Source: an uncultured bacterium
GTDB lineage: Bacteria; Oederibacteriota; JAAXVQ01; JAUVAV01
Direction of reading: 5' to 3'
DNA length: 64,000 nt
Assembly: GCA_963710755.1 (NCBI GenBank)
Contig: CAVQBK010000003.1
Coordinates: 211,605-275,604, forward strand
Positions 24,734 through 56,500 of this stretch are shown here, one piece after another. A program made the position numbers and the translations under genes. Below the pieces are notes generated by a model, which was not told where the DNA came from, made no database searches, and saw only the letters and a list, made by a program, of their open reading frames with translations. Position 1 is the stretch's first letter; each line of letters begins with the position of its first letter.

Positions 24734-24772
24734 CCGTATTTCCGGCGCATTTTTTAAAGAAAGGGGCAAACC

Positions 24773-26569: not shown

Positions 26570-26570
26570 A

Positions 26571-26710: not shown

Positions 26711-26734
26711 TGGGGGGATAATTTCTTTGCTGGT

Positions 26735-27827: not shown

Positions 27828-28115
27828 TTATCTTGTCCCGTTTTTTAATCTCTTCACTTCTTCCACCACCGCCATCTCTATGACCGCCCGCAAGCTCCAC
27901 ACAATCTCATTGACCATGGTTAGATCCATCTTCTCCGGGCAGGCCGCCACGGGCTTGGCCTCCATCATACATGTGTACTCTCCGGCCCAATGAAAGATAG
28001 GAATCTCCTTGAGCAGGATACGGTTGTCAATGGTCACCCGGGCTATGCCGATAATAGCGGATAAGTTCGAAGTGCTGGGGTAGATGGTGATGGAGAGATT
28101 GGGGGAGTGGGGCAT
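27828..28115 (-). CDS. Small conserved hypothetical protein (copy 2; paralog of 23847-24164)
   Basis: 95 aa. Nucleotide identity to copy 1 runs from ~27826 through the start codon (6 substitutions). Confidence 0.5.
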   Translation of the reverse strand: MPHSPNLSITIYPSTSNLSAIIGIARVTIDNRILLKEIPIFHWAGEYTCMMEAKPVAACPEKMDLTMVNEIVWSLRAVIEMAVVEEVKRLKNGTR

Positions 28116-28236: not shown

Positions 28237-28548
28237 ATGCCTTCAAAATCTAAAGAGAAAAATATAATCCAAGTTACCTTAGGTCATATTATAAGGGACT
28301 TACGCTACAAGCTTCACCTTACTCAAGAACAGTTGGCCGAACGGGCTAGTGTAAACCGTTCCTATATTGCTGATCTTGAATTAGGCGGACGCAACATGGC
28401 CTTTCGCAATATTCTACGGCTATCCGTCGCCCTGGAAATCACGCCAGATAAATTATTCAAATTGCTTCTCAAACGACTTGAAACAGATCAAAAAGGATTT
28501 GATTTGAAGAAGTTTATGGAAAAAGATAAGTGGGTGGAGAGAGGGTAA
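28237..28548 (+). CDS. XRE-family HTH transcriptional regulator, copy 2 (diverged)
   Basis: 103 aa, ~60% identical to copy 1 over the HTH but with an identical last 11 codons and identical downstream tail. Confidence 0.7.
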   Translation: MPSKSKEKNIIQVTLGHIIRDLRYKLHLTQEQLAERASVNRSYIADLELGGRNMAFRNILRLSVALEITPDKLFKLLLKRLETDQKGFDLKKFMEKDKWVERG

Positions 28549-32000: not shown

Positions 32001-34365
32001 GAGAGAGGGATTTTTGAAAGCCACCGGGGTCGGGCATGGTGGCGAGCCAGGTGGCGCATTGCTGCAGCAGAGCGCGAGACGTTGGATTGGGCAAATCTGC
32101 AAGTGCATTTTGCCAGACCTCGAAGATAGCGACGATCTCCGGATAGAGCCTCTGCGGTATATCCGAAATGCGTCTGAGGATAAAGTTGATGAGGCGACGC
32201 CACGCGGCGAAGTCGGAAGGCCAACCGAGAAGATCAGCGAATCGTTGGCGTTGATCCGGTGGAAGCGCACCAGCGAGGATGTTCGCATTCGGAGTGGTCT
32301 TTTCAGCTTGAAACCAGACAAGCACCTTTCTGAAAAGCCGGAAGTCGTCGGCAAAGATGGCCGTCGCAAACTGGTCCTCATCAGCTTCGAACTTCGCAGT
32401 TCCGAGGGGACCGACTAGCCAAGCACGCAGCCATTGTGATCTAAGGTCCGAACCCTCGGTTTTGGCGAGGTAGGCGCACCATTCTTTTCCCTGTGTGTAC
32501 TCCCATTGGGAAGAGAGTTCGACGACGCGCGCGACCGCTGGCGGCTCCCCGGAAGCCTTAATCTCTTCCATCCATTGGGCCCCGCGATCAGCCAAGACAT
32601 AGAAAAAGGCCCATTCGAAGAAGATATCGTGGGCGAAGCGGACGGATATCCCTTCACGAGCATTTTGGAGTATGCCATCTGATCTTAGGTCATCGATGTG
32701 TGCGACTGAAGTGAGCTGGCTAAGGCAAATCGGCTGGCTAAGATTGCGAGCACGAACAGAAGCTAAATTGAGCAGCGCTCGCTGGCGTTCAATTGCGTCT
32801 TGTCCATTCTCATTATAACCGCCCCGCTGCCACCAATTCTCGATCAAATCTACTTCAGATTGAGGAGCGAATGTCGGGGCGCCGGGGTCGGCTACGTAAC
32901 TTTGGTTTAGCACTTTCGCAAAAAAGGGTCGTCGGACAATCTCTTTCACCTGGGGTAATCCAAACAGAAGTGGTCTCAGGTGTGGTTTGGCTTTTGCGAG
33001 TAGCTCAGCCTCTTCGTCGCTCAGCTGATCAACGCTAAGCGTCTCGACATTCAGGACATCAAGGAACTCGCCTAACCAATTGCGAAGAACTTCAATACCG
33101 GTGTTGCGAAGGGAGACGACGGTTCGCCAGTTGTCAAGCAGCGGTGACTCCACAATGGTGCGGATTACGTCGAGAATGATGGGCTGATGCTCCTTCTCAA
33201 TACGATCGATTGCATCGATGAACAAAATGGAAGTGCCAGATGCTCCGATCTCAACGAGAAGTTGCTCCAAGGGAGCACCAGAGAGACCCTGCGAAGTCGC
33301 ATAACTGATCCAACTGGTGCCTTCGAGCTGTTCGGCTTTGAGGAAGAAAACTGGCCCGCGTACTAGCGCGCGCTCTACCGCTCGCCTCACTACGACTGAT
33401 TTGCCACTTCCCGGCAGGCCGCGAACCTGGACAACACGGGCTGTAGTTAGCTTGGCGTCCAGGTCTCCTAGGAGCGAGGCTCGGTCGAGCTTTGATCCGC
33501 CAACATCGTCAGGAATGAGGTTTGTGTAACTCTTTGTGAGTTCCGTTAATCTGTCGAGATCAAGACGCAAGGAGGTCGCGCCGCGAAAGCGTACCACAGG
33601 GGAGATCATGCGCACAAGCCGCGCGCGGTCAAACTGGCCCGATTTGCCTGCTGAAGCGCGGGCTAACTGAACGATCTTTGACCAAACGAAGGGTGCCTTG
33701 GCTGCGTCATCGGGCACGAGGCAATCTCCGATGCGATTAATTGCATCCGGGGGATCAGTGGCGCCTTCACGAAGGAAATCGAATTGGATCAGAACGAAGT
33801 GCGCAAGGAACCGATGCACTTCTTCATTTGTGCACGGCGCCCCCTTTGCATCTTCCATCAGAGCAACTACGTTGTTCTTGACTGTTTTGAGCTCAGCACT
33901 AGCGCCGCCATCCTTCGCAAAGCGAGCGTTAAAATGATCCGCGGTCAGACTTTCACGGGCCCAATCGCAAAGGGTTTTAAGCGCTCGTTCTTTGGCGGGG
34001 GTAACCGTGCCAACTGCTGACCCGTAGCGGTCGACGTTGATGCGGAAGTCAGCTTTTTTGAGGGTAGCCCAACTGTTGCGGATAATGTCGCGAAAGTCGG
34101 TGTTAGTTTCCGCCTTGCTTATTGTGAGCGAACGCTTCACCTGGAGGCTAAGGCGAGCGGGTTTCTTTGCTGCATCTTCAAAATCAACAATCACATCATC
34201 GAGCGGTTCGCCGAAGTCGCGCTGTTGAACCGACACGCGAACAACGGTTCGATCATCAATGCCGGGTGCATATGCTTCGGCTAGAAGCGCGGTGAGATAG
34301 AACGCGGCCGCGTCACCCTCAAAGGTAAAACCTTCACCGCCGGCGAGTTCAGTTGATTGTGGCAT
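29029..34365 (-). CDS. Giant STAND-type P-loop NTPase with N-terminal Cap4-like (DUF4297) nuclease-like domain and ~1350-aa helical C-terminal region; putative Avs/bNACHT-like antiviral sensor-effector (1778 aa)
   Basis: N-terminus GGEGFTFEGDAAAFYLTALL...DDVIVDFED...LSLQVKRS fits the DUF4297 GGxGFxFQ start plus a D...(D/E)xK-like core. Walker A VRGLPGSGKSVV at aa ~306-313 and Walker B ILFIDAIDRIE at aa ~369-379. The long C-terminal region has no other catalytic motif. Confidence 0.6.
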   Translation of the reverse strand: MPQSTELAGGEGFTFEGDAAAFYLTALLAEAYAPGIDDRTVVRVSVQQRDFGEPLDDVIVDFEDAAKKPARLSLQVKRSLTISKAETNTDFRDIIRNSWATLKKADFRINVDRYGSAVGTVTPAKERALKTLCDWARESLTADHFNARFAKDGGASAELKTVKNNVVALMEDAKGAPCTNEEVHRFLAHFVLIQFDFLREGATDPPDAINRIGDCLVPDDAAKAPFVWSKIVQLARASAGKSGQFDRARLVRMISPVVRFRGATSLRLDLDRLTELTKSYTNLIPDDVGGSKLDRASLLGDLDAKLTTARVVQVRGLPGSGKSVVVRRAVERALVRGPVFFLKAEQLEGTSWISYATSQGLSGAPLEQLLVEIGASGTSILFIDAIDRIEKEHQPIILDVIRTIVESPLLDNWRTVVSLRNTGIEVLRNWLGEFLDVLNVETLSVDQLSDEEAELLAKAKPHLRPLLFGLPQVKEIVRRPFFAKVLNQSYVADPGAPTFAPQSEVDLIENWWQRGGYNENGQDAIERQRALLNLASVRARNLSQPICLSQLTSVAHIDDLRSDGILQNAREGISVRFAHDIFFEWAFFYVLADRGAQWMEEIKASGEPPAVARVVELSSQWEYTQGKEWCAYLAKTEGSDLRSQWLRAWLVGPLGTAKFEADEDQFATAIFADDFRLFRKVLVWFQAEKTTPNANILAGALPPDQRQRFADLLGWPSDFAAWRRLINFILRRISDIPQRLYPEIVAIFEVWQNALADLPNPTSRALLQQCATWLATMPDPGGFQKSLSQLLLKSSRSEPIFAADYLQRVANSERIRDDAFHDIIVYSPVLAQSLPQSVVELSLAFLREELPDEQVARERQELHRAAEWRKTVLAKPKAERTRQEQMSLSFGHSLRAIGDFSFHDCERLSIHDDHQSFLPPSPLREPFYSLFKFSPAEALRLLRELCNHAMTAWRQLHCYSRYHENPPGTPIPLELRFPWGTQKFWGTDREYLWFRSTWAPNAIGCGFMALEEWCFTELERGRPVDEIIQQIIEGNECIAILGIAAMLALNTETVSETTLPLFISQRLLAADQHRWEQDIAPTTNLIGFTSRTDKPHVDAIQAANARPVRKKQLSWMVPMFVFATGPIRNQTRNAILDFKNNLPFQYEEQRNIPEVRKHLMEQAIKYAEFTDPHNYQAYRTEKDSDQLTIVHVSPSDAEPENIARVEEATKYLNLTSLWTWACKSFEKKGLNDSYDIQDAIAMAREADANDLFKQPKDENEEVQLGIRRGAVAATAAIALTFRKGCSQEDLKWARDVLKRAILLPEKPDLMQSPSSIIPWHQAIYVARGIAADIRESTAERGAIRDLLGLIAHPLEIVSLAALEESCKLWSKDPRLTWAALVLAFSLCHVPLRPRSQARQHNEALHSMSEAQAAIDAALEFYENGSGWASLPLPPPAWVKVEQGKSRRGHQSYEDIDADDATDAAEAWGEPNVIWHSKQAAKILKHIPFDKVLQSSAMNSLLDFLAGVLDWTNQKNEPAWVKPGRRNKSSTQIFEWTHTLGSRLGQVAGFIPLADFQTRFLDPILNLKGDNCWALLSPFASTYVCAYVYDAPVVPADAIVMLNLCLERLLQDSVFKRDTYRSGELTGFDQPDLVRTLMFVSVEGADLAARYVNGDWSEIDRILPLINRFVRASGWAASVMAPFLTLCERARANYPTEAFADQVLSIINNGPDNLKGWHGTFIPARIAELVQYFAHRDTPMKMALAQKFLRILDILVDMGDRRSAALQLSEAFREVRLAS

Positions 34366-34788: not shown

Positions 34789-34971
34789 ATGCCAAGACAA
34801 GCTCGCCTAGACATACCAGGTGCCCTCCACCATAGCATGATCCGGGGGACCAATAAGTCTGCTGTTTTTAAAAGCAAGCAAGATAAACTCTGCTTCCTCG
34901 AATGTCTCGGTGATAAAATAGTGCGGGTTAAGGCAATTAAAGCAGCGGCGGAGTGGAAGGAAGCTCGTTGA
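34789..34971 (+). pseudogene. N-terminal fragment of an IS200-like Y1 (HuH) transposase gene
   Basis: MPRQARLDIPGALHHSMIRGTNKSAVF parallels the N-terminus of the minus-strand copy (MARQKRLSIPGAIYHIITRG). It loses homology after ~45 codons and runs antisense into the neighbouring fragment. Confidence 0.5.
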
Positions 34972-34980
34972 TATATAAAA

Positions 34981-35256
34981 TTAGTGGGAAGAGATGAAAC
35001 CAGGGCGTCGGCGCGGCAGTGTGGAATTCCGGTGCCAGCCGCCATCGCCTTTGGTTGGTCGCAGAAGTAAATGCACATGATTGCTCATCAGCGCCCAGCC
35101 ATAGCACTGGCAAGTGGTTTTTTCTAGAGCAAATGATAATCGTTCCAGAAATTCTCGTCGATCACGATCATCTTTGAATAGTGCCATCCCATTTAAACCG
35201 CGCGTGATGATGTGATAGATTGCACCTGGTATGCTTAATCGTTTTTGTCTGGCCAT
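34981..35256 (-). pseudogene. Truncated/frameshifted IS200-like Y1 transposase (RAYT-like; HuH motif HVHLLL present)
   Basis: MARQKRLSIPGAIYHIITRG...WALMSNHVHLLLRP, then the frame degenerates. A continuation ORF lies in another frame (34782-35078). Confidence 0.55.
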
Positions 35257-36440: not shown

Positions 36441-36513
36441 TTATTTAATCTATTTCTATGCTTTTTCTGCGAAGGCAATGGGACAGGCAAGGGGACACCT
36501 ATAATTTAATAAC

Positions 36514-36692
36514 TATTCTCCATCGATGATAATAGGAAGCAAAGATGGGTTTTCCTTGATTATCTGTGCACCTTGCCGGAATAACCTGCTGGCGGCAGGC
36601 TGACTGATACCCAGCCGATCGGCCAATGCTGTTTGCCGTTCGTGCTGATAGTCGCATGCCAAATAAATGGCCAAACTCCGGGCTTTCGCCAT
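36514..36692 (-). pseudogene. C-terminal fragment of a Y1 transposase-like gene with DnaA-C-like HTH
   Basis: Minus-strand translation MAKARSLAIYLACDYQHERQTALADRLGISQPAASRLFRQGAQIIKENPSLLPII resembles the C-terminal HTH tail of IS200-like proteins of the MARQARLDIPGALHH family. Isolated, with no upstream catalytic part. Confidence 0.4.
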
Positions 36693-37077: not shown

Positions 37078-37353
37078 TGATTTCCTTCCAATATTCTTAA
37101 TGTATTAGAATTGCTCTGCTAATTTCTGCATATTGCCTATAACGTTCCTGGCACATACGATGTTGCGTCTGACACTTGAAGTTACATTATCCTTTTAGCT
37201 TTTTTAAAGCAACAAATTTTTTGACCTAAATCAAGCAAGCAATATGGCGTAGCCCAAGCGACCGCAGGGCGCGCAGCGTTATGTGCCGTGTTGAACTAAA
37301 CCTTCGGTAATAAAATTATTGCGTAGATTCATTGACTACCTATCATGATATGT

Positions 37354-37572
37354 GTTCTACGGGACGTTAACAACTTAACAACTTTATATTTTTTCGTTCA
37401 CAAATCTCCCTTCCTTTTTCGAACCATTTCGATACCGCTTGTTCTTTGGCGCTCACTTAAATGTCTGTCACCCTGGTAAATTCAGTCGTTTTTGTCGTGG
37501 CATGGTGTAATTATAACTGCATTTATTTGGAACTGTCTATTAAGTTGTTATGTTGTTAACGTCCCCTAGAAC
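37354..37572. mobile_element. MITE-like element, copy B (inverted relative to copy A)
   Basis: Reverse complement of copy A with TIRs GTTCTACGGGACGTTAACAAC / GTTGTTAACGTCCCCTAGAAC. Confidence 0.7.
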
Positions 37573-37726
37573 TAACGTTCTATTCCCAGACTTTTTCTTT
37601 TTTCATTTCACTTTTTTACAAAAAAAGGACATGCCTATAGTTTCAAGTTAGACATGTCCCCTAATCTTATCCAAAATAAAAACCCACCCGACTAGCTTTA
37701 GGTGGGTTAATTAAAATGCTCTATTA

Positions 37727-38092
37727 TTAACTCTGAAAATAATGTTTATATTTTTTCGGCAACGCTTTTGATTTCGCGCCACCTTTTTTAATCTTTGAAA
37801 CTAATTTTTCAGAGGCATCTGGTTTCCTAATATGGCTTTTATTTGCTGACCAAGCTAAAATATCAGATAGTAATTCTTCTTTTACTCGAATATAATTCAC
37901 AAAGGATTTCTTTTTTACAAACGGATGTTCACCCGGTTCAATTATACAAGAACGGTCACATGGCCTATCTTCGCGTACTGTCGAAAGACTCACAAGTAAA
38001 CAATGTGTCTCGTTATTACAAACAACGAAAAACAGATGATGGGAAGAAGGACTGTCAGTAGGGATTAAAAAAGCAGCACCAATTAATGACAT
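37727..38092 (-). CDS. Hypothetical protein, candidate toxin partner of the Panacea-domain antitoxin (121 aa)
   Basis: Overlaps the upstream Panacea gene by 10 nt in an AT-rich context. Ends Lys-rich. No family recognised. Confidence 0.35.
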   Translation of the reverse strand: MSLIGAAFLIPTDSPSSHHLFFVVCNNETHCLLVSLSTVREDRPCDRSCIIEPGEHPFVKKKSFVNYIRVKEELLSDILAWSANKSHIRKPDASEKLVSKIKKGGAKSKALPKKYKHYFQS

Positions 38093-38640
38093 TCCAAAAA
38101 TTGCTTTGCTTTATTAAAGCGGTGAATGTCCTTTTCAATTTCTTTTATAACTTGTGTGGATTTCCCAACGGCTCTAAAAATATCTTCGATTTCAATGGGT
38201 TTTGATGAACCTTCGGGGTCTTGCCACTCTTTTAAATACCTATGACAGTATTTTTCAATTTGCCACTGATTAAAATGCCTAAACTTGTGTGAAACTTTTT
38301 CTATTAGCTCTATCTCTCTTTCGCTTAACTCTCCATCCTCACATTCATTATGAGCGGAAACGTTATAATTATTCCGCACTATATGTTTATGCCAATAGGA
38401 GTCTTCCCCTGGTTTTGGTTTATAATTAATAGTATCCAATATTTCACTTACAACTGGACCATGAGGCAATGAAAAATACCTGTCACAAGTAATAGGTGCT
38501 TCCCATTTTTTCAAAGCTTCCCTGTCTGCAATATATAGAAGCTTGATTAGCTTCATATAGTTAATACGCCCACCTTCTTTTTTAATAAAATGGCAGGCTG
38601 CTTGTGTTGCTTTTTTAATATCAAACTCGAATTGGATCAT
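38083..38640 (-). CDS. Panacea-domain (DUF4065, SocA-like) putative antitoxin
   Basis: N-terminal MKLIKLLYIADREALKKWEAPITCDRYFSLPHGPVVSEI matches the Panacea core (KLxKLLYxADRE...GxPxxx..Y.A...GPV). Confidence 0.6.
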   Translation of the reverse strand: MIQFEFDIKKATQAACHFIKKEGGRINYMKLIKLLYIADREALKKWEAPITCDRYFSLPHGPVVSEILDTINYKPKPGEDSYWHKHIVRNNYNVSAHNECEDGELSEREIELIEKVSHKFRHFNQWQIEKYCHRYLKEWQDPEGSSKPIEIEDIFRAVGKSTQVIKEIEKDIHRFNKAKQFLECH

Positions 38641-38986
38641 TTTAACCGCCCCTTATTTACCCGAATTCGGCCCAATTTCTAGTGAATTCGCCTACACTTT
38701 CATAATAGTTTCGTCTCAATAGTTGATATTGTTTAGACCCTGATTTGACTTTAAATACCGCTTAAGCGGTATTTAACTATATAGAAGTATAGCATACGCC
38801 CCGATATAAACACAACATATTGTCCAGCTCACCCAAGTTGCCTAAAGCCATTTGTCGTATCCAACCAGTATTAAACCCTTATAAATCAACGGTTTTCCCT
38901 CATCCAGAGTGCGCCTTCTCGACGCTATCCATCATGTCATCCTTTTTTGAATTCTCGCCCCTGAAGGTTCTGCACTGTAATGTTGG

Positions 38987-39204
38987 TTCTAGGGGACGTT
39001 AACAACTTAACAACTTTATATTTTTCCGTTCACAAATCTCCCTTCCTTTTTCGAACCATTTCGATACCGCTTGTTCTTTGGCGCTCACTTAAATGTCTGT
39101 CACCCTGGTAAATTCAGTCGTTTTTGTCGTGGCATGGCGTAATTATAACTGCATTTATTTGGAACTGTCTATTAAGTTGTTATGTTGTTAACGTCCCCTA
39201 GAAC
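38987..39204. mobile_element. MITE-like element, copy C (same orientation as copy B)
   Basis: Near-identical to copy B. TIRs GTTCTAGGGGACGTTAACAAC / GTTGTTAACGTCCCCTAGAAC. Confidence 0.7.
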
Positions 39205-39285
39205 ACAGACCCGGGTATCCGGGACGAGCCTAACTGATTAACTTAAGCTTCTTGTTCCCCACTATTTCCACGCCCTCGCCGGCTC

Positions 39286-39513
39286 TTATTTTTTATCCGC
39301 CTTGCCCGGCTGATCCCCTTGGGTGCTGATATGCACGCCGGGCACGGAAACATCGGTGTTGCCATTGTCATCGGTACTGATATGCACCCCGGGCAGGTTC
39401 ACGCGCACGCCCTGATCGGATACGTGGATGCCCACCATGCCATTGCTTTTTGAACCGCAGGCCGCGAGACCCACCAAACTCATCCCCACCAAAACCCACG
39501 CCATTATTTTCAT
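39286..39513 (-). CDS. Small lipoprotein with duplicated PGVHIST motif (75 aa)
   Basis: Signal peptide ending LAAC (lipobox). Internal repeat LPGVHISTDDNGNTDVSVPGVHISTQGD. Confidence 0.5.
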   Translation of the reverse strand: MKIMAWVLVGMSLVGLAACGSKSNGMVGIHVSDQGVRVNLPGVHISTDDNGNTDVSVPGVHISTQGDQPGKADKK

Positions 39514-39687
39514 GCCCGCCTCCGAAATTAAGATAGATTATGCTTCTGGTCACATGTCTTCAGTATCGGAAAATAGAAATCAAACTCAACGCTGAGCATC
39601 CGGCATGCCTTCGCTCCACCGGCGAGAAAACTTCAATGCCAGATAGCGCCTTTTCCCCATAGCCTTGGCCTGCTTGCGGAATGCTTT

Positions 39688-41058
39688 TTACCGATCCCCC
39701 TGGACCGCCTCTTCATTCAGCAGGCCTTCAATATTCTCAACAACTAAAAAATTCAGCTCTTTGCCTCGTTTACGCTCCTCTAAAAACCCTTTCTTGGCCA
39801 GATCCAACAAATCCGACCGGGCCGTGCCCCAGGAGATGGCATTTGAATTTTGATAGTTTTTAATGGTATAGGCAAAGTCCTTATGGTTGATGGCATGATT
39901 TAACAGATCGATCTGCCGATAGTTTAAATCCTCTCTTCTTTTTATCCTGGTTCTGAGCCGATGATAGTTAACCACTTTCTTTTCAACATAGGCTTCCAGC
40001 GCTTCGATACTTTTTCGAATAATACTTAGATGATAATAAATAAAATAATTTAAATCTCCGCCGTCGCATTCGGTATTTAAATAAGCCCTTTTATATTGGC
40101 CTTTGGATTGATTGATCATTTCCGAAATGGAAACATATTCAAATAATTTATACTGCTTGCTAATCAGGTACCAATAAAACAATCCCCGGGCCGTCCGGCC
40201 GTTGCCGTCGGTAAAGGGATGGATATAACCGATCATAAAGTGGAGGATAATGGCTTTTATAACCGGGTGAACGAACTCCTGGTCGTCATTGGCAAAGTCA
40301 CATAAGGCCTGGATTCTCTGCTCCACTTCTGCATAAGGGGGCGGTATAAACAAGACTTCCTGGTCCGCATCATGTACATTAACCTGTTCTTTTCTAAAAG
40401 AACCTTCTTCCTCAGGATTTTCCAACAACCCGGCAGTTAAATCTTGATGTATTTTTTTAATTAATTCCGGGGAGAGCTTTTGGGTTTTATACTGCTTGGT
40501 TATTTTAATAATCGCACTATAGTTATTGATGATCATTTTTTCATCCTGCGTTTTTGGTTTCTTGCCGGCCTTGATCATTTCCTTGGCTTGTTTGCGCGTG
40601 GTGGCCGCGCCTTCTATTTGGGATGAAGTGATGGCTTCTTCCATCAACGCGTGTATGATTCTTTGTTTCAGCCATTCTTCCTTGTGGTCTTCTTCGCCGG
40701 CATTTTGAAAAACCATATTATCCGAAAGATGGATATCGACATAGTGGATCTCTTTTAAGATGCTGTTGGTTAATTTATAGGAAAAGGGGCTATTTTTAAT
40801 ATCCACCAAGCCCTTGGTTTCCAGACTCTGCGAACGTAAAAAAATTTTCATATAAAGCCATAAGGTTAAATGATCATAACTGCTTTCCGGTAAGGGACTA
40901 TTAGAGAACTTGTTCCAGGTCCAGTACTCTTCATAGGCTTGATTAAGAAAAATGCTTAGTTCTTTTTTCGCGTGAAGCTGTTTATGAATCGTCAATAACG
41001 TCATCATTAAATCATCATTGAGCTTTTCCACTATATTGGGAAAGTATGGTTTTTGCAC
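39688..41058 (-). CDS. Fic-family protein (class II, with inhibitory SxxxEG helix), 456 aa
   Basis: Fic motif HPFTDGNGRTAR. Inhibitory motif SSQIEG lies N-terminal to the core. GTG start. AT-rich. Confidence 0.8.
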   Translation of the reverse strand: MQKPYFPNIVEKLNDDLMMTLLTIHKQLHAKKELSIFLNQAYEEYWTWNKFSNSPLPESSYDHLTLWLYMKIFLRSQSLETKGLVDIKNSPFSYKLTNSILKEIHYVDIHLSDNMVFQNAGEEDHKEEWLKQRIIHALMEEAITSSQIEGAATTRKQAKEMIKAGKKPKTQDEKMIINNYSAIIKITKQYKTQKLSPELIKKIHQDLTAGLLENPEEEGSFRKEQVNVHDADQEVLFIPPPYAEVEQRIQALCDFANDDQEFVHPVIKAIILHFMIGYIHPFTDGNGRTARGLFYWYLISKQYKLFEYVSISEMINQSKGQYKRAYLNTECDGGDLNYFIYYHLSIIRKSIEALEAYVEKKVVNYHRLRTRIKRREDLNYRQIDLLNHAINHKDFAYTIKNYQNSNAISWGTARSDLLDLAKKGFLEERKRGKELNFLVVENIEGLLNEEAVQGDR

Positions 41059-41396
41059 TTTAATGCACCTTTTTCTATCAATTTATAAATTTTTAATACT
41101 TGTTAACACTATATCAACAAAATCTATCAATTTAAATAAAATTAATACTTTGTTATATTTAACTATTAATATTTATTAGTTTTTAAATTTTTGATACTTT
41201 GCTTGATGAATTTAGGATTAATTAAATTAAAAGACATTTTCATTTAATTAATTTTGGTTAAGTAAAAGAAGGCTTAATTATTAAGACGCTAATTAAAGGA
41301 ATCTCAGTGGATAGCACCAAAATTACCGCATATATTTTTATCCGGTCGAAAAATCGGTGGCTGGCGCCAAAACCCCGACTCTATGATTGGCCGTCC

Positions 41397-42554
41397 TCAC
41401 TCTACGCCTTCATTCAACAGCCCTATATACGCACTGTAGGCATATATCCTACCCCGCTGTTTACCGCTGATTTCTTTGACGATCCCCAAACGCTCAAGCT
41501 GATTAAAGGCCGACACAATGGTGGGGGTGGTCAGGCCTGTCAGCTTTTTCATTTTTTTAATCGATAAAATGAGATGTTGCTCCATTTCACGGTGGAGGCG
41601 GAGGGCCGTGGTGGCACCTCTGCCGGTCTGCTGCAGGGCTTGCCGGTCTTGATTAACCAAAGCCATTAGTCTCTTGGCTGTATCCACGGCATTGCCCGCT
41701 GTTTCAATGAGGCCATCGGCAAAGAAGTCGAGCCAACTTTCCCAGTCTCCTTCAAGGCGCACCTGCTCCAGCAACTTGTAATACATCTCTTTATGTTTTT
41801 TAAAGTAAAGACTCATATACAGCATGGGCTGGGATAGTATTTTTTCTGTATATAATAATAATGTAATCAGCAACCTGCCGATACGGCCGTTGCCATCCAA
41901 AAAGGGATGGATCGTTTCAAACTGCACATGGGCCAGCGCCACTTTGATTAAAGCCGGTGTTCTGGTTTCCGCATTATGCAGGTACTTTTCAAAAGCATCA
42001 AGACACTCCATTAATAATTCCGGCGGTGGGGGCACAAAGCCGGCATTGCCCGGTCTGGTGCCGCCCACCCAATTTTGACTTTTTCTGAATTCTCCGGGAT
42101 TTTTACCGGCCCCCCTTCCCTGGGATAACAGCACTTGGTGTATTTCCCGGATAAGACGCAATGACAGAGGAAACCCTTCTTCCATCCGTTTTAACCCATG
42201 ATTGAGTGCAGCGACATATTGAGAAACTTCCTCCACATCATCGATTGGTACCCCGGGCATGGCTTCCGATTCATAAATGAGCAAATCTGAAAGGGACGAT
42301 TGCGTGCCTTCGATCCTGGAGGACATCACCGCCTCTTTACGGATATAAGCATATATAAAATAGGTAATATCGGGCAACAAGATCGCCGCACTGTCGAGCC
42401 GTCCTAAGCTGATTAAAGCCTGATCCAGTTTCAGACGTAAACCATCGTCAATAGCCAATTTCTTAAAATCCGGTATGGGATAGGGGACAAAGGCCTTGAC
42501 CTGTTCATCATAAACAGTTGTTGTAATATATCGTCCTGTTACCTCTTTAGTCAT
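41397..42554 (-). CDS. Fic-family protein (class II), 385 aa
   Basis: Fic motif HPFLDGNGRIGR and inhibitory motif SSRIEG. Confidence 0.8.
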   Translation of the reverse strand: MTKEVTGRYITTTVYDEQVKAFVPYPIPDFKKLAIDDGLRLKLDQALISLGRLDSAAILLPDITYFIYAYIRKEAVMSSRIEGTQSSLSDLLIYESEAMPGVPIDDVEEVSQYVAALNHGLKRMEEGFPLSLRLIREIHQVLLSQGRGAGKNPGEFRKSQNWVGGTRPGNAGFVPPPPELLMECLDAFEKYLHNAETRTPALIKVALAHVQFETIHPFLDGNGRIGRLLITLLLYTEKILSQPMLYMSLYFKKHKEMYYKLLEQVRLEGDWESWLDFFADGLIETAGNAVDTAKRLMALVNQDRQALQQTGRGATTALRLHREMEQHLILSIKKMKKLTGLTTPTIVSAFNQLERLGIVKEISGKQRGRIYAYSAYIGLLNEGVE

Positions 42555-42736
42555 GACATCCTCTTAATTAAAGTATATCGGATTTAGATTTAATTAAATT
42601 TATTTTAGTAAAAGAAAGCTTATTTGGCAACTTATTAATTAAAGTATAACTGTTTTTCTTTTAATTAATAGAAAATAACGCTGGAGACGCCATATTTATT
42701 TGCCATGACTGTTCTAGTCAATAGGGTCGGGAAATT

Positions 42737-42973
42737 GGTGGCTGTTACCGGTTGCGCCTATAATTTTCCACGCTGCGGTCATAGGTCTTTTCCGCTTTGG
42801 CGTCAAAATAACAAGCCGGCAATTCGCCCCTCTTGCGGTGATAGTGAAGGCATTCACAGCAGAGGCCCTTGCGGGAACAGGGGTAGGAACAATTGCAGTC
42901 GTTTCTATTATGCTCTTGTTTGCATTCCACCGGCTGATCTCCCCTACAAAAATCTTTCTTCCATTCCGGCGTT
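42737..42973. repeat. 237-bp direct repeat, copy 1 (second copy at 45329-45565; 1 mismatch)
   Basis: Seen directly. Contains the Cys-rich mini-ORF on the minus strand. Confidence 0.8.
42745..42930 (-). CDS. Cys-rich small protein (N-terminally truncated copy; [21 protein letters not shown])
   Basis: 61 aa from a GTG start. Identical to the C-terminal 61 aa of 45337-45573 except R/M at one position. Confidence 0.35.
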
Positions 42974-43052
42974 TGATAACACGAATATGGATCTTATTTG
43001 ACCCTTCGAATGCCGGGAGCCTTCGCGCTTGGCATCCCTTAAAGCTGCTGCT

Positions 43053-44147
43053 TCATTTAATTTCATCTTTCACTTCCGGAACCCGTATAAATAAATTAAA
43101 CAACTTGTGATTGATATAATAAATCGAATTGCCCATCTTCTTTTTCTTTAAAAATCCACCATCTACCAATTCGTTTAAATATTTTGTGGCCGTGATCCTG
43201 GTTATGTTTAAATCCCGTTTCAGAAAATCTATTTTCGTATAGGGATGAAAAAATAAATTGTTTAAAAGATCCTGGCTATAAAAGCGGTATTTTTGGCGAA
43301 TCTCATGCTTGTAGGCCATCATTAATTCTCTGATTTTCAGGATGATGTGTATGGTTTGACGCGACGTTTGTTCAATCCCGGCAAGTATGAATAAAATCCA
43401 TTCTTCCCAAGCTTCCCGATCCCGTACGGCTTGTAAAAGACGATAATAATCATTTTTATTTTTAATAATGTATCGGCTGAGGTACAGCACCGGTATGTTT
43501 AATAACTTTTTTTGAACCAAATATAAAATATTGAGGATGCGTCCTGTCCTTCCATTGCCGTCATAAAAAGGATGGATGCTTTCAAATTGATGGTGAATCA
43601 CCGCCATCTTAATTAAAGGATCTATCGGCGAAATGTGATCATCATTGATATACTTCTCCAAGTTATTCATCAAACGCAAAATATCATCGGCATTTTGTGG
43701 TGGCGTATAGACCGTCTCACCGGTTTGATTATTTTTGAGTTCTGTTCCTGGAAGTTTTCGATATCCGGCCTTATGTTTAACCAATTCAGATTGAATTTCC
43801 AGTATAGTGTTGCTGGTCAACATGCCGCTCTTTTGCACCAACTGGAATCCTTTTTTCAATGCAATGGCATAATTTTGAACCTCTTTGGTTGCCGGACTGG
43901 TTTGCATCTCTTTAAAAAGACCAAGTTTAAACAATTCATCTTGGGTGGTAATAATATTTTCAATTGCAGAACTATCCTTAGCTTCCTGAAGGCCTAACGA
44001 ATTGATTAAAATATTTTGATTGGGTATGGTTTGCGAAATGCCTTTTAGTTCTGCTAAATATCTGTGCGCTCGGGCTGCTTTTTTTAATATCTCCTTTGAT
44101 TCAAGATCCGCTTTGGGCGGCAGATTATTTAACTGGTACATGGGCAC
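43053..44147 (-). CDS. Fic-family protein (class II), 364 aa
   Basis: Fic motif HPFYDGNGRTGR and inhibitory motif SSAIEN. Confidence 0.8.
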   Translation of the reverse strand: MPMYQLNNLPPKADLESKEILKKAARAHRYLAELKGISQTIPNQNILINSLGLQEAKDSSAIENIITTQDELFKLGLFKEMQTSPATKEVQNYAIALKKGFQLVQKSGMLTSNTILEIQSELVKHKAGYRKLPGTELKNNQTGETVYTPPQNADDILRLMNNLEKYINDDHISPIDPLIKMAVIHHQFESIHPFYDGNGRTGRILNILYLVQKKLLNIPVLYLSRYIIKNKNDYYRLLQAVRDREAWEEWILFILAGIEQTSRQTIHIILKIRELMMAYKHEIRQKYRFYSQDLLNNLFFHPYTKIDFLKRDLNITRITATKYLNELVDGGFLKKKKMGNSIYYINHKLFNLFIRVPEVKDEIK

Positions 44148-44562
44148 ATTTAACTCCTGGGCGCAGTTATGTATAAAAACATTAAAATTTTATATATTGT
44201 GCAATAAGTATGTATATTTTTAACCATTTATTATACATGCGATTGTAATTATCCTTTTTTATCAAGCATTTTATGGTACTTCATTTTTATGGTCTTATTG
44301 CCTTTTTGATCTGAATGTCAATAAAAAAGACGGTTTTTGAAATTGTAGAGGGGGTATCGGGGACGCTCTTAACTAATCCAACTTAAGCTTTTTGTTCCCC
44401 ACTATTTCCACGTCCTCGCCAATACCTTGCTGGACTGCCTCATCGCTTATCCCCAAATATTTCCCTATCCCGGTTTTAGAGTGGCTACCTGGGACGTCCT
44501 TCGATAATATGATATCCCTTGTGCAGTGCAATTTTGCAGTCGCGTGCAATAATAGCCGGCAC

Positions 44563-44928
44563 CTATTTCGAAGGAAGTAGTCTGGCCATTTGGCTGACCA
44601 ATTCAGGCACATGCTGCTTGGCTACTCTCCACAAAAGTTCATCTTCGATTTCTCCGTATTCGTGGGCAATGACATTTCTTTGAGCAATAATCTTTCCCCA
44701 TGGAATTTGAGGATTATTTTTTTGAAAGGACTTTGATACTTTATTGGCAGCTTCACCAATAATTTCAATATTTCTTTCTATCGCATTTCGAAGTTTTCTA
44801 TCTGAAGCATAATCATGATAGGTCTGATCAGCTATGAATTCCATAACCGCTTTCCCTGCATCCAGCATATCCCACAGGTAGGCCAGATCCCTCTCTTCAG
44901 GCTGCATAAATAACCTCTCGATTATCAA
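44563..44928 (-). CDS. hepT: HepT-like HEPN-domain toxin (DUF86)
   Basis: 121 aa. RNVIAHEY is the Rx4HxY HEPN motif. Overlaps the mntA-like gene by 32 nt. Confidence 0.75.
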   Translation of the reverse strand: MIIERLFMQPEERDLAYLWDMLDAGKAVMEFIADQTYHDYASDRKLRNAIERNIEIIGEAANKVSKSFQKNNPQIPWGKIIAQRNVIAHEYGEIEDELLWRVAKQHVPELVSQMARLLPSK

Positions 44929-45199
44929 GGATGGCTTGCCTGCGATAAGGATTCCTTATTCCTTTCTTGGATACCAGGTCGACTTTTTTCAAAAACAAGG
45001 CCTCCAGCTCATGCTGCATATCAATCCAATCGTATAGACTCCAGCCGGAATTATTGAGAAACTCCACCAGCACATCAACATCGCTGTTGGAGGTAAAATC
45101 GTCACGAAGAACAGAACCAAAAAATGAAAGTTCCGCTATCTTCCATTTTTGGCAAAAATCTCTTATTTTTTGGTGATCAATACTGATGTGAGGACTCAT
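44897..45199 (-). CDS. mntA: MntA-like minimal nucleotidyltransferase antitoxin
   Basis: 100 aa. GSVLRDDFTSNSDVDVLVEF is the GSx10DxD NTase motif. Confidence 0.75.
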   Translation of the reverse strand: MSPHISIDHQKIRDFCQKWKIAELSFFGSVLRDDFTSNSDVDVLVEFLNNSGWSLYDWIDMQHELEALFLKKVDLVSKKGIRNPYRRQAILDNREVIYAA

Positions 45200-45328
45200 T
45201 TTTATTCCTTAACCAAGTGATGAATTTATGATGACAGATATTTGATGACGAGGCAATATTTTATTGTTGTCTAAGCTGTCAATAACAATAGCATGCACCG
45301 GTTGAGATCCATCGGTATGAGAAAAACC

Positions 45329-45565
45329 GGTGGCTGTTACCGGTTGCGCCTATAATTTTCCACGCTGCGGTCATAGGTCTTTTCCGCTTTGGCGTCAAAA
45401 TAACAAGCCGGCAATTCGCCCATCTTGCGGTGATAGTGAAGGCATTCACAGCAGAGGCCCTTGCGGGAACAGGGGTAGGAACAATTGCAGTCGTTTCTAT
45501 TATGCTCTTGTTTGCATTCCACCGGCTGATCTCCCCTACAAAAATCTTTCTTCCATTCCGGCGTT
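45329..45565. repeat. 237-bp direct repeat, copy 2
   Basis: One mismatch relative to 42737-42973. Confidence 0.8.
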
Positions 45566-45573: not shown

Positions 45574-45696
45574 CCTGGAACTATCGGTTGGCCGTGCAGG
45601 GTACAGGCAGGCCGGTACCCTGCAACAAGGTTTTTTTAAATGCTGCCCAAGGATGAGGTCGCACTTCTTTTTATTACACCCTGAACATTAATAGCA

Positions 45697-46377
45697 TCAG
45701 GCCGTCCTTTTTTTACTTCTGCTTTTCTGCTTAACCGCTTTAACCGCCGCGATCAAGGGTTTATAGCGTTTGGCCTGTTCATCGAATTCATAAAATTTGG
45801 CATGTTTGATGTCAAACCACCAGGCATGAAGCTGCAGGGTGCCCTGATTGATCCGTCGGTAGATGGGGGGATAGGTTTTGAGATGGCTCAATTGCATGAG
45901 CACATTAAGCTGGGAGATTTGATTGAGATCGGACAAGGACTCATCGATCTCCACGGTCTCCTCCACCTCCGCGATGGAAGCACGCTGCAGGCGTAGCCAT
46001 GATTCCAGATTGGGCATGCCGTCCAACGCCATGCCCTGATAAATGACCTGCATGGCCCCGCATTCGGAATGGCCGCAGACGATGATGTCCTTGACGTCTA
46101 ATTGAAAAAGCGCGTACTCAATGGCCGCGCCTACAGAAACGCTTCCGGCCGAGAGGCCGCCCGGTCCGCAAGGCGGGACCATGTTGCCGATATTGCGGAT
46201 GATGAACAAGTCCCCCGGTTGGCCTGAGGTCATGGCGGAAGGCAAAATGCGGCTGTCCGCACAGGTCAAAAACAGGGCCTGCGGTTTCTGCCCTTTGATC
46301 AAGGGCGCGATTTTCTTTTGATAGTGGGCTTGCTGTTCCAGCTCGAATTTTTTAATGCCCTCTATGAGTCTTTTCAT
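45697..46377 (-). CDS. Beta-class carbonic anhydrase
   Basis: LTCADSRILP (CxDSR) and IIVCGHSECGA (HxxC) zinc-ligand motifs. Confidence 0.8.
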   Translation of the reverse strand: MKRLIEGIKKFELEQQAHYQKKIAPLIKGQKPQALFLTCADSRILPSAMTSGQPGDLFIIRNIGNMVPPCGPGGLSAGSVSVGAAIEYALFQLDVKDIIVCGHSECGAMQVIYQGMALDGMPNLESWLRLQRASIAEVEETVEIDESLSDLNQISQLNVLMQLSHLKTYPPIYRRINQGTLQLHAWWFDIKHAKFYEFDEQAKRYKPLIAAVKAVKQKSRSKKRTA

Positions 46378-52036: not shown

Positions 52037-53377
52037 TTAGCGACTGACCACTAATTTTTTCAGAGGATAGATACTGGTTTTTCCCCGACTGATGGCGGCC
52101 AGGCGTACATAATACAGCCCCGGCGCCAGGTGATGCAAACGGCAGCGGACCAGCTGCTCTCCGGGAGATACGGTAATGCTGGCCACACGCTCCCCGGCCA
52201 CATTGTAAAGCGTGACCCGTCCGCCACCGTCCGCATCCTCAGGCCAGCAAAAAGTCACCTGGTCAACAGCAGGGTTGGGATAAAAAGCATGGGCCGCAGG
52301 TGCAGGATCATTGACCGTGGCCGCTGGGCTGGGCGTGGTGCTTGCGGTTGCAGGCATGATGGTCGTGGTGGTGGCACTGGCCGTGGGGCTCGCGGTCAGG
52401 GTGGGTGTCACGGTGGCGATGAATGAGGCTGTTGGCGTGAGGGTGTTGGTCAAGGTGATGGTGCTGCTCGCCGTCAGGCTGGGCGTCACGGTAAATGAAT
52501 TGGTGTTGGTCGGGGTAACGGACCACGTAGGGCTGTGGGTGGCTGTGGCCGTGGGTGTAGACGTATTGGTCAAGGTCGCAGTAGGGCTCGCGGTCAGGGT
52601 GGGCGTTATTGTGCAGGTGCTGGTGGTGGTCTCGGTAAAGGTGGCGGTGGCCGTGATGGTCATGGTAAACGAGGGCGTGGGCGTAATGGTCAGCGTGGAT
52701 GTTGGCGTATAGGTAATGGATTGCGTGGGGGTCATGGTGGCGCTGGGACTGGCGGTAAAGGTTGGCGTCATGCTGGGCGTCGCGGTCAGGGTCGGCGTGG
52801 CGGTAAAGGTTGGCGTGTGGGTTGGGGTTATGGTGGGAGTAGAGGTAGAGGTCGGCGTGCCCAGGACATCGGAAATATAAACGCAGAAGGTGGAAAAAGA
52901 AGCTGCCGGCGACACGCCGGCAGGATCAGGAAAAGGGTTCCATGAATAAGACCGCTGCAAACGGGCGGTGGCATAAGAACTGAGGCCTATGGTGGTGGAA
53001 AATTGAAATTGAATACCCAGATAATAATCGCTGCCATTAACAATAGGCACGGCTGATGACAGAGGCATTTGGTTCCATCCATTCACAGCTTCCTGGGGAG
53101 CGGCTGCAGCCAGGAGATTCTCGGCATACCCGGTGGTGCTGTTGCCTTGATACACCGCAGCCTGTATCTGAGTGCCGGGCGTGGTGATGTTCTGCACATA
53201 AACCATAATGTAGCTGGCCGTAAAATCTTCAGCAGCGCGAAACATATGGCCGCGAATGGAAGCCGCAAAGGAGGCGCTGCTGTCGGGCAAATTATTATTG
53301 CCCAGCACCGCTGCCTTGGCTTGGGTTGGACAGCCTAATAATAATATGATCATTATTTTTCTCAAGGTTGTGCGCAT
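52037..53377 (-). CDS. Secreted protein with ~200-aa Thr/Pro-rich linker and T9SS-type C-terminal sorting domain (446 aa)
   Basis: Signal peptide. TPT/TAT repeats (nt ~52250-52870). C-terminus FYPNPAVDQVTF...VTLYNVAGERV...GLYYVRLAAISRGKTSIYPLKKLVVSR resembles the Por-secretion C-terminal domain. Confidence 0.6.
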   Translation of the reverse strand: MRTTLRKIMIILLLGCPTQAKAAVLGNNNLPDSSASFAASIRGHMFRAAEDFTASYIMVYVQNITTPGTQIQAAVYQGNSTTGYAENLLAAAAPQEAVNGWNQMPLSSAVPIVNGSDYYLGIQFQFSTTIGLSSYATARLQRSYSWNPFPDPAGVSPAASFSTFCVYISDVLGTPTSTSTPTITPTHTPTFTATPTLTATPSMTPTFTASPSATMTPTQSITYTPTSTLTITPTPSFTMTITATATFTETTTSTCTITPTLTASPTATLTNTSTPTATATHSPTWSVTPTNTNSFTVTPSLTASSTITLTNTLTPTASFIATVTPTLTASPTASATTTTIMPATASTTPSPAATVNDPAPAAHAFYPNPAVDQVTFCWPEDADGGGRVTLYNVAGERVASITVSPGEQLVRCRLHHLAPGLYYVRLAAISRGKTSIYPLKKLVVSR

Positions 53378-53521: not shown

Positions 53522-56500
53522 ATGCGTCACTGGTTACTCAGCCTTATGGTTGTCCTTTTACTCACACCCTTGGTTAACGCCGCCACTTATACAGTCACCA
53601 ATAGCAATGATTCGGGCGCCGGTTCTTTTCGTCAGGCCGTACTGGATGCCAACGGCTCGGTCGGTCCCGACAGCATCGTGTTTAGCTCCAGTTTTATGTA
53701 TATCACCGTAAGCAGTTATATCCGGGTGACTGACACCATTAACCTCAGCGGCAACTACGCGGTTATCAATGGCAACAACAGCAGCAACGGCGTTTATTTT
53801 GCCGCCGGCAGCGATGGCAGCACCATCACGGCCATGGCCTTTGTACAATCCACAGGCTACGGTCTCAGCCTGGCGTCCAACTGCAACCGCGTCTATAACT
53901 GCGCCTTGGGCACCAACTTCAGCGGCACGAGCGGGCTGGGCAACAACATCGGCCTGTCCGTCAGCGGCCATTACAATGACATCGGCGGTACGCTCTCCTC
54001 AGGCTACAATATTATCTCCGGCAATAACAGCTATGGGCTCAGTATTTATAGTTCCATTGGCACCAGGGTACACGGCAACTATATTGGCACCAATCACACC
54101 GCTACCTTGGCCGTGCCCAATAACACGGGTATTCAACTCTACGGCAACAGCATGCAAACCATGATCGGCGGCGACCGCAGTGCCGGTCAGGGCAATGTGA
54201 TCAGCGGCAATACCACTTACGGTGTGTACCTCAGCGATGTAGATTGTTTTGGCAACAGCCTGGCCGGCAATTACATCGGGGTGGATCCCATTCAGGTCAA
54301 TCCCTTGCCCAATAGCGTGGGGATCTTGGTTCATCAGTCCTCCTGGAATTATATCGGCTTGCCGGTGGCGAATTATGGCAACGTGGTGGCCGGCAACAGC
54401 TCCTATGGCATTGAACTTTGGTGCGGCAGTTCCACCAGCAATCCCCATCCCAATGCCAACCGTATTCAAAACAACTATATCGGCATCTGCCCGGACACCG
54501 GCGTGGTTTACGGCAACAACAATGGCGTCTATCTGGCTTCTGCTGACGGCAATTTGGTTGGCGGCGACCGGACACTCAACGAAGGCAATGTGATCTCAGG
54601 CAATACCAACCACGGGGTATACATGCTCGACGGCATTGGCAACTCCATCAGCGGCAACCTGATCGGCACCGATATTCTAGGATCCATGGAAGCGCACAAC
54701 ACCGGTTCGGGCATCCGCATTCAGATGGGCTCAGGCAACCTGATCGGCGGGTACAATATTGGCACCACCTTACGCCAGGGCAACCTGATCTCCGGCAATT
54801 ACCAGCACGGCATCACCTTTAACCGGGATGTACTGGGCGAACAGCAGCGGAACAATAATATTTACGGCAACTGGATCGGCCTGAACCTGGCCGGCACCGG
54901 CGCTATTGCCAATCAGCAAAACGGCATTAATTTTTACACCAATGCCGGGGACAATAATATCGGTTCCTCCAACACTCTTTATCGCAACGTAATTGCCGGC
55001 AATGGCGGCTATGGATTCCAGGCGCAATACGGCTTCAACAACAAGGTCTACGGCAATTACTTTGGCACGGACATCAATGGGACCACCTTCATTCCCAACA
55101 GCAATGATGCCATTCACTGGACCAACAGCTACAAGAACCGGATTGGCGGCACCAACACCAATGAAGGCAATGTAATCTGCGGCACAGGCACTTACGGCAT
55201 TTACCTGGCCGATAGCTTTGAGAACACCATCATCGCCAATTATATTGGTGCGCTGGCCAACAAAACCGTGACCTCACCCAATTTCAATACCGGTATTTAC
55301 CTCACCAATTGGAGCTATACCAACTGGATCGGTTTGGAAAGCGCCAACAAAGGCAACCTGATCGCCGGCGTGACCAACGGCATTAATGTGGCCCATGATC
55401 AGGCCGACGGCGTCATGCTCAGCACCAACACCATCTGCGCCTTCAGCGGCCAGGGCATTATCCTGGCGGCCGGTGCCAACAACAATGAAGCCGCGCCCAC
55501 CATTGATTCCCACAGCAGTGGCTGGCTCTATGGCACATGTACCAGCGGCGACGATGTGGTGGAAGTGTTTGTGTCAGACCGCTCCACCGGCGTGGCCGGC
55601 GGCAGCCTGACCTATGTGGGCCGCACCACGGCCATCATCGGGACATCGTGGGGCCTCAATGTAACCGGCCGGTTTACCACCAGTGGAGAAGCCTTCACGG
55701 CCATTAGCACCAACGGCATGAACAGTTCCGCCTTTGCTCAAAATTACATGATTCCTTACCCTACGCCGACCATCACGCCGACATCCACCATTACCATGAC
55801 CTCTACGTTCACGCCGACTGCTACCATTACCAAAACGGGCACTCCCACCGCGACCTTGACGGATACGGCAACTGCCACAAGGACAGCCACACCTTTGGCC
55901 AGCGCCACTTTCACGCCCAGCTATACGGCCACGCCCTCGGTAACACCGACCTTTACCCTCACAGCCACCATGACTGATACCATGACTTCCACGGCCACCC
56001 CCACCCTGACCGCGACACCCACCAAGACCTTTACCCCTACAGCGACGGCCACAGCCACCATCTCAACGACGATAACGCCCGGTAACACACCTACATTTAC
56101 GGAAACACCCACTTGTTCGCCCACGTATACAGCCACGGGCACTGCGACCGCTACAGGCACCTGCACCGACACGCCCACTCAAACCGCGACCCCAACCATG
56201 TCGGTCACCTCTACACCCACGGGCACCTGCACCGACACGCCTACTCACACCCCGACCCCAACCATGTCGGTCACTTTTACTGCGACAGGCACTAAAACCA
56301 TGACCAGTACAGCCACGCCTTATTATTCAGCAACGACGACGTCAACGATCACCGACACCCCCACTGTAACATCGACCGCCACCATTACCACTACCAGCAC
56401 CATCAGCCCCACGCGCACCGCCACACCTCTGGCCACCAACACCCCGGTAGTCACCAATACACCGGTGGTCACCGCCACGGAGACCGATAACAACACCACC

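Follow-up and report, generated by a model that had tools for sequence, protein, structure and literature searches.

Campbell-type insertion-duplications and amplifiable units consist of a unique segment lying between direct copies of one homology segment, and RecA is expected to loop out or amplify the enclosed DNA with no need for an element-encoded recombinase. In integrative islands and cis-mobilisable elements, the attachment-site (att) repeats copy the end of the target gene, restoring for example the 3′ end of icd or of a tRNA gene. Composite transposons and IS26-type translocatable units carry identical direct repeats bracketing a cargo that is movable as a circle with one repeat. Here, we describe a related arrangement in a 64,000-nucleotide (nt) stretch (hereafter the window) of contig CAVQBK010000003.1 from an uncultured bacterium of the Oederibacteriota. 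Two near-identical direct repeats of 237 base pairs (bp), each containing a small gene of the family DUF6485, bracket a cassette encoding a Fic-type AMPylase (Fic3) and the toxin-antitoxin pair HepT/MntA. The locus forms the right-hand edge of a defence island of about 22 kb (~22.9-45.3 kb of the window) that is low in G+C content (GC).

The locus differs in some respect from each of these systems. In comparison with Campbell-type integration, the donor circle is hypothetical, the homology is a whole 237-bp host gene, and the cargo consists of defence and toxin-antitoxin genes without replicon functions. As in att-flanked islands, foreign DNA lies beside a core gene, direct repeats of a host gene are present, and the gene is intact after insertion. 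However, no integrase or recombinase domain and no complete transposase was detected in the 26 sizeable open reading frames (ORFs) scanned across the island (22.9-45.6 kb), the repeat spans an entire gene together with its ribosome-binding site, and no core or arm sites were identified. Unlike the repeats of composite transposons and IS26-type units, the repeat is not an insertion sequence and encodes a conserved cellular protein of the DUF6485 family. This protein of 61 amino acids (aa) possesses the full invariant Cys/His set of its family; its gene is duplicated here but single-copy at the 80 loci compared from other genomes. The repeat is a true segmental duplication that takes in a whole host gene and its ribosome-binding site, with 43 nt on the upstream and 8 nt on the downstream side. 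There is about an even chance, in our judgement, that this duplication is the scar of cassette entry by a Campbell-type single crossover through the DUF6485 gene. The locus is most likely a further example of insertion-duplication at the border of a defence island, produced by ordinary recombinational genome plasticity.

The duplicated segment and its gene

The features that define the duplication and its immediate borders are given below. L001 to L003 denote three Logan sequences, taken from the k=31 contigs and unitigs that were assembled independently from the public run ERR11523667 and used as an assembly check.

42737..42973, repeat copy 1 (R1): 237 bp, GC ~0.50-0.51; L003 and L002 end 30 nt inside its edges
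45329..45565, repeat copy 2 (R2): 237 bp, one mismatch to R1; L002 and L001 end 30 nt inside its edges
42974..45328, unique interval between the repeats: 2,355 bp, GC 0.38; foreign defence cassette by composition
42745..42930, minus strand, DUF6485 gene copy 1: 61 aa, GTG start, Arg34; Shine-Dalgarno-like GGGGAG at 42939-42944
45337..45522, minus strand, DUF6485 gene copy 2: 61 aa, GTG start, Met34; GGGGAG at 45531-45536
45325..45345, minus strand, terminator-like hairpin 3′ of DUF6485 copy 2: AACCGGT, 7 nt, ACCGGTT, then TTTCTC
45697..46377, minus strand, beta-carbonic anhydrase, core host gene directly upstream of copy 2: GC at third codon positions (GC3) 0.67
41397..42554, minus strand, Fic2 (SoFic-type), island gene directly downstream of copy 1: domain and PADLOC matches

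The two copies, delimited by repeat search, MAFFT alignment and base-by-base comparison, start 2,592 bp apart and are 99.6% identical, a likeness far above chance expectation. The sole mismatch is a C at 42830 in copy 1 versus an A at 45422 in copy 2. Identity ends abruptly at both edges, the 300-nt flanks aligning locally no differently from shuffled sequence. L003 matches window positions 39175-42766 exactly, as does L002 positions 42944-45358 (the 2,355-bp interval extended by 30 nt into each repeat); L001, which starts at 45536, has 2 differences from the window in 10,842 bases. Because the ends of these sequences fall precisely k-1 = 30 nt within the repeats at each of the four edges, the four junctions are present in the reads and the boundaries are those given above. 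Near-identical direct repeats, differing at one base and bracketing the Fic3-HepT/MntA cassette, had been reported in the initial annotation and are confirmed by both the alignment and the unitigs. Its proposal of a recent duplication or insertion remains the simplest reading of one mismatch in 237 bp combined with sharp edges, although intrachromosomal gene conversion could also preserve such identity. The suggested search for the repeat elsewhere in the genome was run on the 64-kb window, at both the DNA and the protein level, and returned the two copies with no third copy or degenerate remnant.

Both copies of the mini-gene are complete, since the GTG start and the GGGGAG ribosome-binding site, situated 8 nt 5′ of it, fall within the repeat. 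This revises the earlier description of a 9-Cys peptide of unknown family with an ATG start in copy 2 only. An ATG start is absent from both copies, each of which is an intact gene of 61 codons for amino acids beginning with GTG. The 78-aa ORF of copy 2 begins at a TTG at 45573, beyond the repeat edge, and is an over-extension with a spurious N-terminus; eight invariant cysteines stand, and the ninth lies in this extension. A Pfam scan and a homologue search placed the product in PF20095 (DUF6485). At 25.6 bits, the 61-aa form, scanned for copy 1, exceeds the cut-off of 24, and copy 2, scanned in its over-extended 78-aa form only, scores 20.4 bits.

A total of 349 homologues, including bacterial and archaeal members, were retrieved from 5.8 billion proteins, with E-values down to 9e-27 and identities up to 79%. 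The best 120 of the 349 are mostly 61-70 aa long, span the whole 61-aa query and are nearly all annotated as PF20095. In an alignment of 59 homologues, nearly all start at, or at most two residues from, M-E-C, and the invariant residues C3, C12, C14, C18, C24, C25, C27, H31 and C40 are kept in both copies. The one base that differs between the repeats makes residue 34 an Arg in copy 1 and a Met in copy 2, a non-synonymous change at a position that varies among the homologues, so neither copy appears disabled. Exact protein look-ups in public assemblies gave no match for the 61-aa form (either allele), the 78-aa form or the 75-aa edge-truncated forms. No NCBIfam model matches the protein, and DUF6485 is mentioned in no paper of the literature collection searched.

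The AlphaFold2 model of the mini-gene product is of moderate confidence, with a mean predicted local distance difference test score (pLDDT) of 71. It has no solved-fold match in a Foldseek search against the PDB, and a profile search of PDB sequences gave no significant match. Metal binding is a plausible guess from the pattern of eight invariant cysteines and His31, and the product is probably a metal-binding host protein. Nothing speaks for the regulator role initially suggested, with no sign of DNA binding.

Composition and gene context point to the mini-gene being a host gene. Its GC3 is 0.60, compared with 0.37-0.43 for the cassette genes and 0.67-0.71 for the core neighbours. Similarly, GC is ~0.50-0.51 in the repeat, 0.38 in the inter-repeat interval, and 0.53-0.58 in the right-hand core genes (carbonic anhydrase, DUF2148 and BatD). 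A comparison set of 80 DUF6485 loci from other genomes, at most 79% identical, was obtained by a scan of genome contigs, and the gene is single-copy in all 80. No conserved partner gene emerged across these loci, the best neighbour cluster being found at 13 of 80 and apparently lineage-specific. Within the 10-kb flanks, a Fic-like match occurs at one locus and a HepT or MntA match at none; synteny with carbonic anhydrase, DUF2148 or Fic is likewise absent from the set. As the gene is single-copy and unlinked to Fic and HepT in these 80 loci, the duplication described here is local and exceptional. The same data (host-type GC3, single copy, no conserved neighbours, near-absence of Fic and HepT/MntA) speak against the idea that the mini-gene is part of the mobile unit. 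It looks like a host bystander caught up in the event and not recombination machinery, which, together with the intactness of the gene in both copies, is the practical correction to be made to the annotation of this locus.

The terminator-like hairpin at copy 2 crosses the repeat edge. Its last four stem bases and the T-run fall outside the repeat, and the structure is broken at copy 1; it folds no better than shuffled sequence (z = 0.1). A separate, strong hairpin with a 10-bp stem (GCAGGGTAC...GTACCCTGC) lies at 45596-45625, in the stretch that separates DUF6485 copy 2 from the carbonic anhydrase gene, with a T-run on the plus strand and an A-run on the gene strand. The 135-nt spacer between these two genes folds better than its shuffles (z = -2.6).

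Origin and consequences of the duplication

In a single-crossover event, recombination would use the DUF6485 gene as the sole stretch of homology. The incoming DNA would be circular, or linear in an ends-in configuration, and would carry the cassette and one DUF6485 copy; its donor could be a sibling strain whose island variant has the cassette beside DUF6485. Such a crossover would necessarily leave the homology segment as a direct repeat flanking the insert. This origin is favoured because a host-type segment flanks foreign DNA in direct orientation and with sharp edges, with neither terminal inverted repeats nor a recombinase. Identity over 237 bp with one mismatch, and no homology in the flanks, fits the insertion of a single segment and argues against old paralogues. 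In addition, the four junctions are seen in the unitigs, and the repeat is core-like in composition around an insert of low GC. Also in favour are the single-copy state of DUF6485 at the 80 comparison loci, the absence of a tRNA gene from the window and the other near-identical segmental repeats of the island. The hairpin, complete only at the junction of copy 2 with the cassette, fits a donor in which the cassette natively followed DUF6485, and it fits ectopic copy-paste equally well.

Several observations weigh against a single crossover. The hairpin is weak, being indistinguishable from shuffles as noted above. Neither an empty site nor a donor context was found in the searches, in which the closest DUF6485 protein is 79% identical and the closest carbonic anhydrase 49%. 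An exact 33-mer of the repeat is absent from the JGI metagenomes, and metagenome matches to the carbonic anhydrase do not exceed 49% identity and have no DUF6485 nearby. As no close relative was found among genomes or metagenome contigs, the mechanism is read from the anatomy alone. The cassette contains no replication or mobilisation gene, and a circle joining the cassette to the host gene requires an earlier event that is itself unexplained. Finally, ectopic copy-paste accounts for an identical anatomy.

In such a copy-paste event, the main rival explanation but in our view an unlikely one, the native order would be carbonic anhydrase, DUF6485, mntA, hepT, Fic3, Fic2, and copy 1 would be a 237-bp templated insertion into the Fic3-Fic2 spacer, for instance by break repair with template switching. 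The context of copy 2 is coherent on both sides, with a core gene upstream and the hairpin and T-run past its edge, and copy 1 has neither. The repeat is also about the size of a transcript, comprising a 43-nt leader, the coding sequence and an end within the terminator stem, and another sub-gene fragment has been pasted in the island (145 nt of an XRE gene, 96%, 26569-26713). However, the junctions lack microhomology, rejoining Fic3 and Fic2 yields no significant complementarity or hairpin across the joint, and bacteria rarely duplicate non-mobile DNA to dispersed sites. Nor was a promoter match seen directly 5′ of the repeat edge, or a reverse transcriptase in the scanned ORFs of the island. 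A route through complementary DNA of a transcript is even less likely. It is doubtful that the locus is a decayed site-specific integrative element of the cis-mobilisable kind, with DUF6485 as attachment site, the repeats as attL and attR, and an integrase acting in trans or lost. Direct repeats of a host gene do flank foreign DNA at an island edge beside core genes, and the foreign DNA on the Fic2 side and on the mntA side begins at the same nucleotide 3′ of the gene, like a reused insertion point. Against this stand the lack of an integrase or recombinase in the scanned island ORFs, an identity segment that is a whole gene with ribosome-binding site and not a 3′ or 5′ gene end, and an opposite island border devoid of any further copy or remnant. 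To our knowledge, 237 bp is also at or past the upper end of att identity segments.

In the k=31 graph (A->R, R->C, C->R, R->B), the tandem arrangement and a single copy accompanied by a 2.6-kb circle look the same. The graph would thus also accommodate a mis-resolved assembly, in which a 2,592-bp circle or minority variant was threaded into one chromosomal copy (Fic2, R, carbonic anhydrase). This is improbable nonetheless, in view of a source contig of 1.47 Mb, the resolution of several other 220-290-bp repeats in the window, and a site, 93 nt from the edge, at which the two copies differ and which short reads can phase to the left flank; moreover, a 2.6-kb circle lacking any replication gene would not be maintained. 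A very long target-site duplication, with a linear cassette ligated into nicks staggered by 237 bp and gap filling duplicating the target, would yield host-type repeats, a foreign insert and sharp edges in one event. It is nevertheless highly unlikely given that the cassette has neither terminal inverted repeats nor a transposase, that completion of the hairpin at the copy 2/cassette junction would be a coincidence, and that known prokaryotic target-site duplications measure between a few and a few tens of base pairs. Ancient DUF6485 paralogues whose identity is maintained by gene conversion would have a parallel in mosaic identity elsewhere in the island, where a 290-nt gene is 98% identical and its partner gene 70%. 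This origin is extremely improbable, with no residual similarity past either edge, a family that is single-copy at all 80 comparison loci, and a repeat of host-type composition within foreign DNA.

Two further mechanisms were rejected. A transposon or insertion sequence is contradicted by the lack of significant terminal inverted repeats and of a transposase in or between the repeats. A diversity-generating retroelement is contradicted by the single difference (sense-strand G in copy 1, T in copy 2) and the lack of a reverse transcriptase in the scanned island ORFs. An integron cassette is not favoured: the scanned ORFs include no integrase, the cassette ends show no structured inverted repeat, and Rfam has no match in the window, although no dedicated attC model was applied.

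Direct repeats of 237 bp at 99.6% identity well exceed the minimal length for RecA-dependent exchange. The initial annotation was right that the repeats are placed to delete or amplify the cassette, as their direct orientation fits the established biology of RecA substrates, with a unit of 2,592 bp. Loop-out by RecA would delete these 2,592 bp and leave one DUF6485 gene, and unequal sister exchange would amplify them; HepT/MntA, carried by the unit itself, should penalise its loss. A bolder proposal, in our view rather unlikely, is that the 2,592-bp unit (Fic, HepT/MntA and one DUF6485) is a non-autonomous, circularisable defence cassette that enters and leaves an island hotspot without encoding a recombinase, relying on an entire conserved host gene as portable RecA homology and on its toxin-antitoxin pair to penalise loss. 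The logic of portable homology might extend to other repeat-bracketed modules in the island. If the single-crossover origin is true, the locus would be a fresh footprint of a defence island gaining a module without integrase or transposase, through homology limited to a short conserved host gene. The resulting unit would be unstable, open to deletion or amplification, and might be stabilised by the toxin-antitoxin pair. Such an origin bears on how defence islands are assembled and turned over.

The Fic3-HepT/MntA cassette

The following features were recognised in the interval between the repeats.

43053..44147, minus strand, Fic3, class II (SoFic-type) Fic AMPylase: Fic_N, Fic and SoFic-like_C domains
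44563..44928, minus strand, HepT toxin (HEPN RNase): PF01934; RX4HXY motif RNVIAHEY
44897..45199, minus strand, MntA antitoxin (minimal nucleotidyltransferase): PF01909/PF18765; GSX10DXD motif GSVLRDDFTSNSDVD
45255..45282, minus strand, sigma-70-like promoter match 5′ of mntA, within the cassette: TTGACA-16-AATATT; consensus match only
44352..44420, 69-nt segment between hepT and Fic3: ~87% identical to 39213-39280

Class II Fic proteins were defined by the motif HxFx(D/E)GNGRxxR, an N-terminal (S/T)xxxE(G/N) and a SoFic-like C-terminal domain. All three are present in Fic3, whose translation carries the motif HPFYDGNGRTGR and the inhibitory SSAIEN. Fic3 matches the PADLOC SoFic model at 2.9e-119, and scores 385 bits against NCBIfam NF046030, under the 550-bit equivalog cut-off and hence not as an equivalog. 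It is described here as a SoFic-type class II Fic AMPylase and a predicted defence gene. The nearest relative of Fic3 (L084) is 84% identical, with the likeness confined to the coding sequence and a different gene context. Plasmid and phage collections contain distant Fic matches only, and E. coli genomes gave no match.

In the toxin-antitoxin pair, mntA comes first and hepT second, and the reading frames overlap by 32 nt. The motifs RX4HXY and GSX10DXD are what we take to define HepT and MntA, respectively. Scores against the NCBIfam equivalog models are below the cut-offs (38 bits versus 60), so membership of HepT and MntA is assigned at the family and not at the equivalog level. The gene order with overlap resembles that of the type VII toxin-antitoxin pair (PMC7641770). 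The counterpart of the 69-nt segment between hepT and Fic3, at 39213-39280, adjoins a unit at 39.2 kb that resembles a miniature inverted-repeat transposable element (MITE). This shared segment suggests that the cassette may have been assembled from two modules, HepT/MntA and Fic. No significant terminal inverted or direct repeats were found at the cassette ends or at the repeat termini.

A 2025 paper described a 47-aa antitoxin, AS1, encoded directly downstream of E. coli SoFic (single-gene anti-phage defence, PMC12249575). The present locus is similar in that the PADLOC SoFic model recognises Fic3, with DUF6485 copy 1 as a small gene 122 nt downstream. In contrast, DUF6485 occurs without Fic linkage in other genomes, EcAS1 is 47 aa long, and the resemblance is positional only. 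As DUF6485 and Fic genes do not go together elsewhere, an AS1-like antitoxin role for DUF6485 is unlikely. A further small ORF, of 40 aa and with an ATG start, runs from 43066 to 42944 on the minus strand, overlapping the Fic3 stop codon by 14 nt and ending 30 nt inside copy 1. It has no Pfam match, and no counterpart was found downstream of Fic1, Fic2 or the L084 homologue.

The surrounding defence island

The island is bordered by a UbiA-family gene on one side and by the DUF6485 and carbonic anhydrase genes on the other. It contains HicAB, two XRE-linked pairs, a SocA/Panacea pair, ArsR and SdpI, as well as two further SoFic-type genes and an Avs4-like STAND protein. The latter, a protein of 1,778 aa (29029-34365, minus strand) with a PADLOC DUF626_VIII match at its N-terminus and an Avs4 (STAND NTPase) match at residues 292-587, is probably an Avs-like anti-phage sensor. 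No tRNA gene and no Rfam match was found in the window.

The only transposase traces are IS200-like (Y1_Tnp) gene fragments at 34789-35256 and 36513-36692, on both strands and with a small helix-turn-helix-like ORF, 8 kb from the repeats. They may be what is left of an enzyme responsible for moving the MITE-like units. Three such units of ~220 nt (219-222 nt) are 98-100% identical and lie at 26350-26571 (inverted), 37352-37573 and 38986-39204; they carry 35-nt terminal inverted repeats (GTTCTAGGGGACGTTAACAAC...), and have no Rfam match. Solo ends occur at 22993-23029 and 24700-24736, with partial copies inside an 85-nt repeat (22942-23026 and 24649-24733). Two direct copies bracket the pair formed by a gene for an unknown 121-aa protein and SocA/Panacea (37727-38640), and a Logan unitig also ends 30 nt inside one MITE-like copy (39175).

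Duplicated modules are found at the left of the island. A gene of 95-105 aa and unknown family is present at 23845-24134 and 27826-28115, where 290 nt are 98% identical, and its divergently transcribed XRE helix-turn-helix partner (24253-24552 and 28237-28536) is just 70% identical. Such mosaic identity suggests gene conversion or module exchange. The pasted 145-nt XRE fragment mentioned above corresponds to the 3′ part of the gene at 24423-24567 and lies beside a MITE-like unit. Given these other near-identical segmental repeats, recombinational shuffling is evidently active in the island.

Very AT-rich DNA 5′ of Fic1 and Fic2 (41076-41199, 41208-41298 / 42554-42668) contains three tandem 49-nt repeats and recurring TTAATTAA palindromes, and the two regions are 73% alike over 81 nt. 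These sequences may serve the SoFic-type genes as common operators or promoters. Elsewhere in the window, degenerate 48-nt and 66-nt tandem-like repeats occur in GC-rich coding sequence at 52366-52863 and 55962-56267, partly complementary to each other and 3.4 kb apart.

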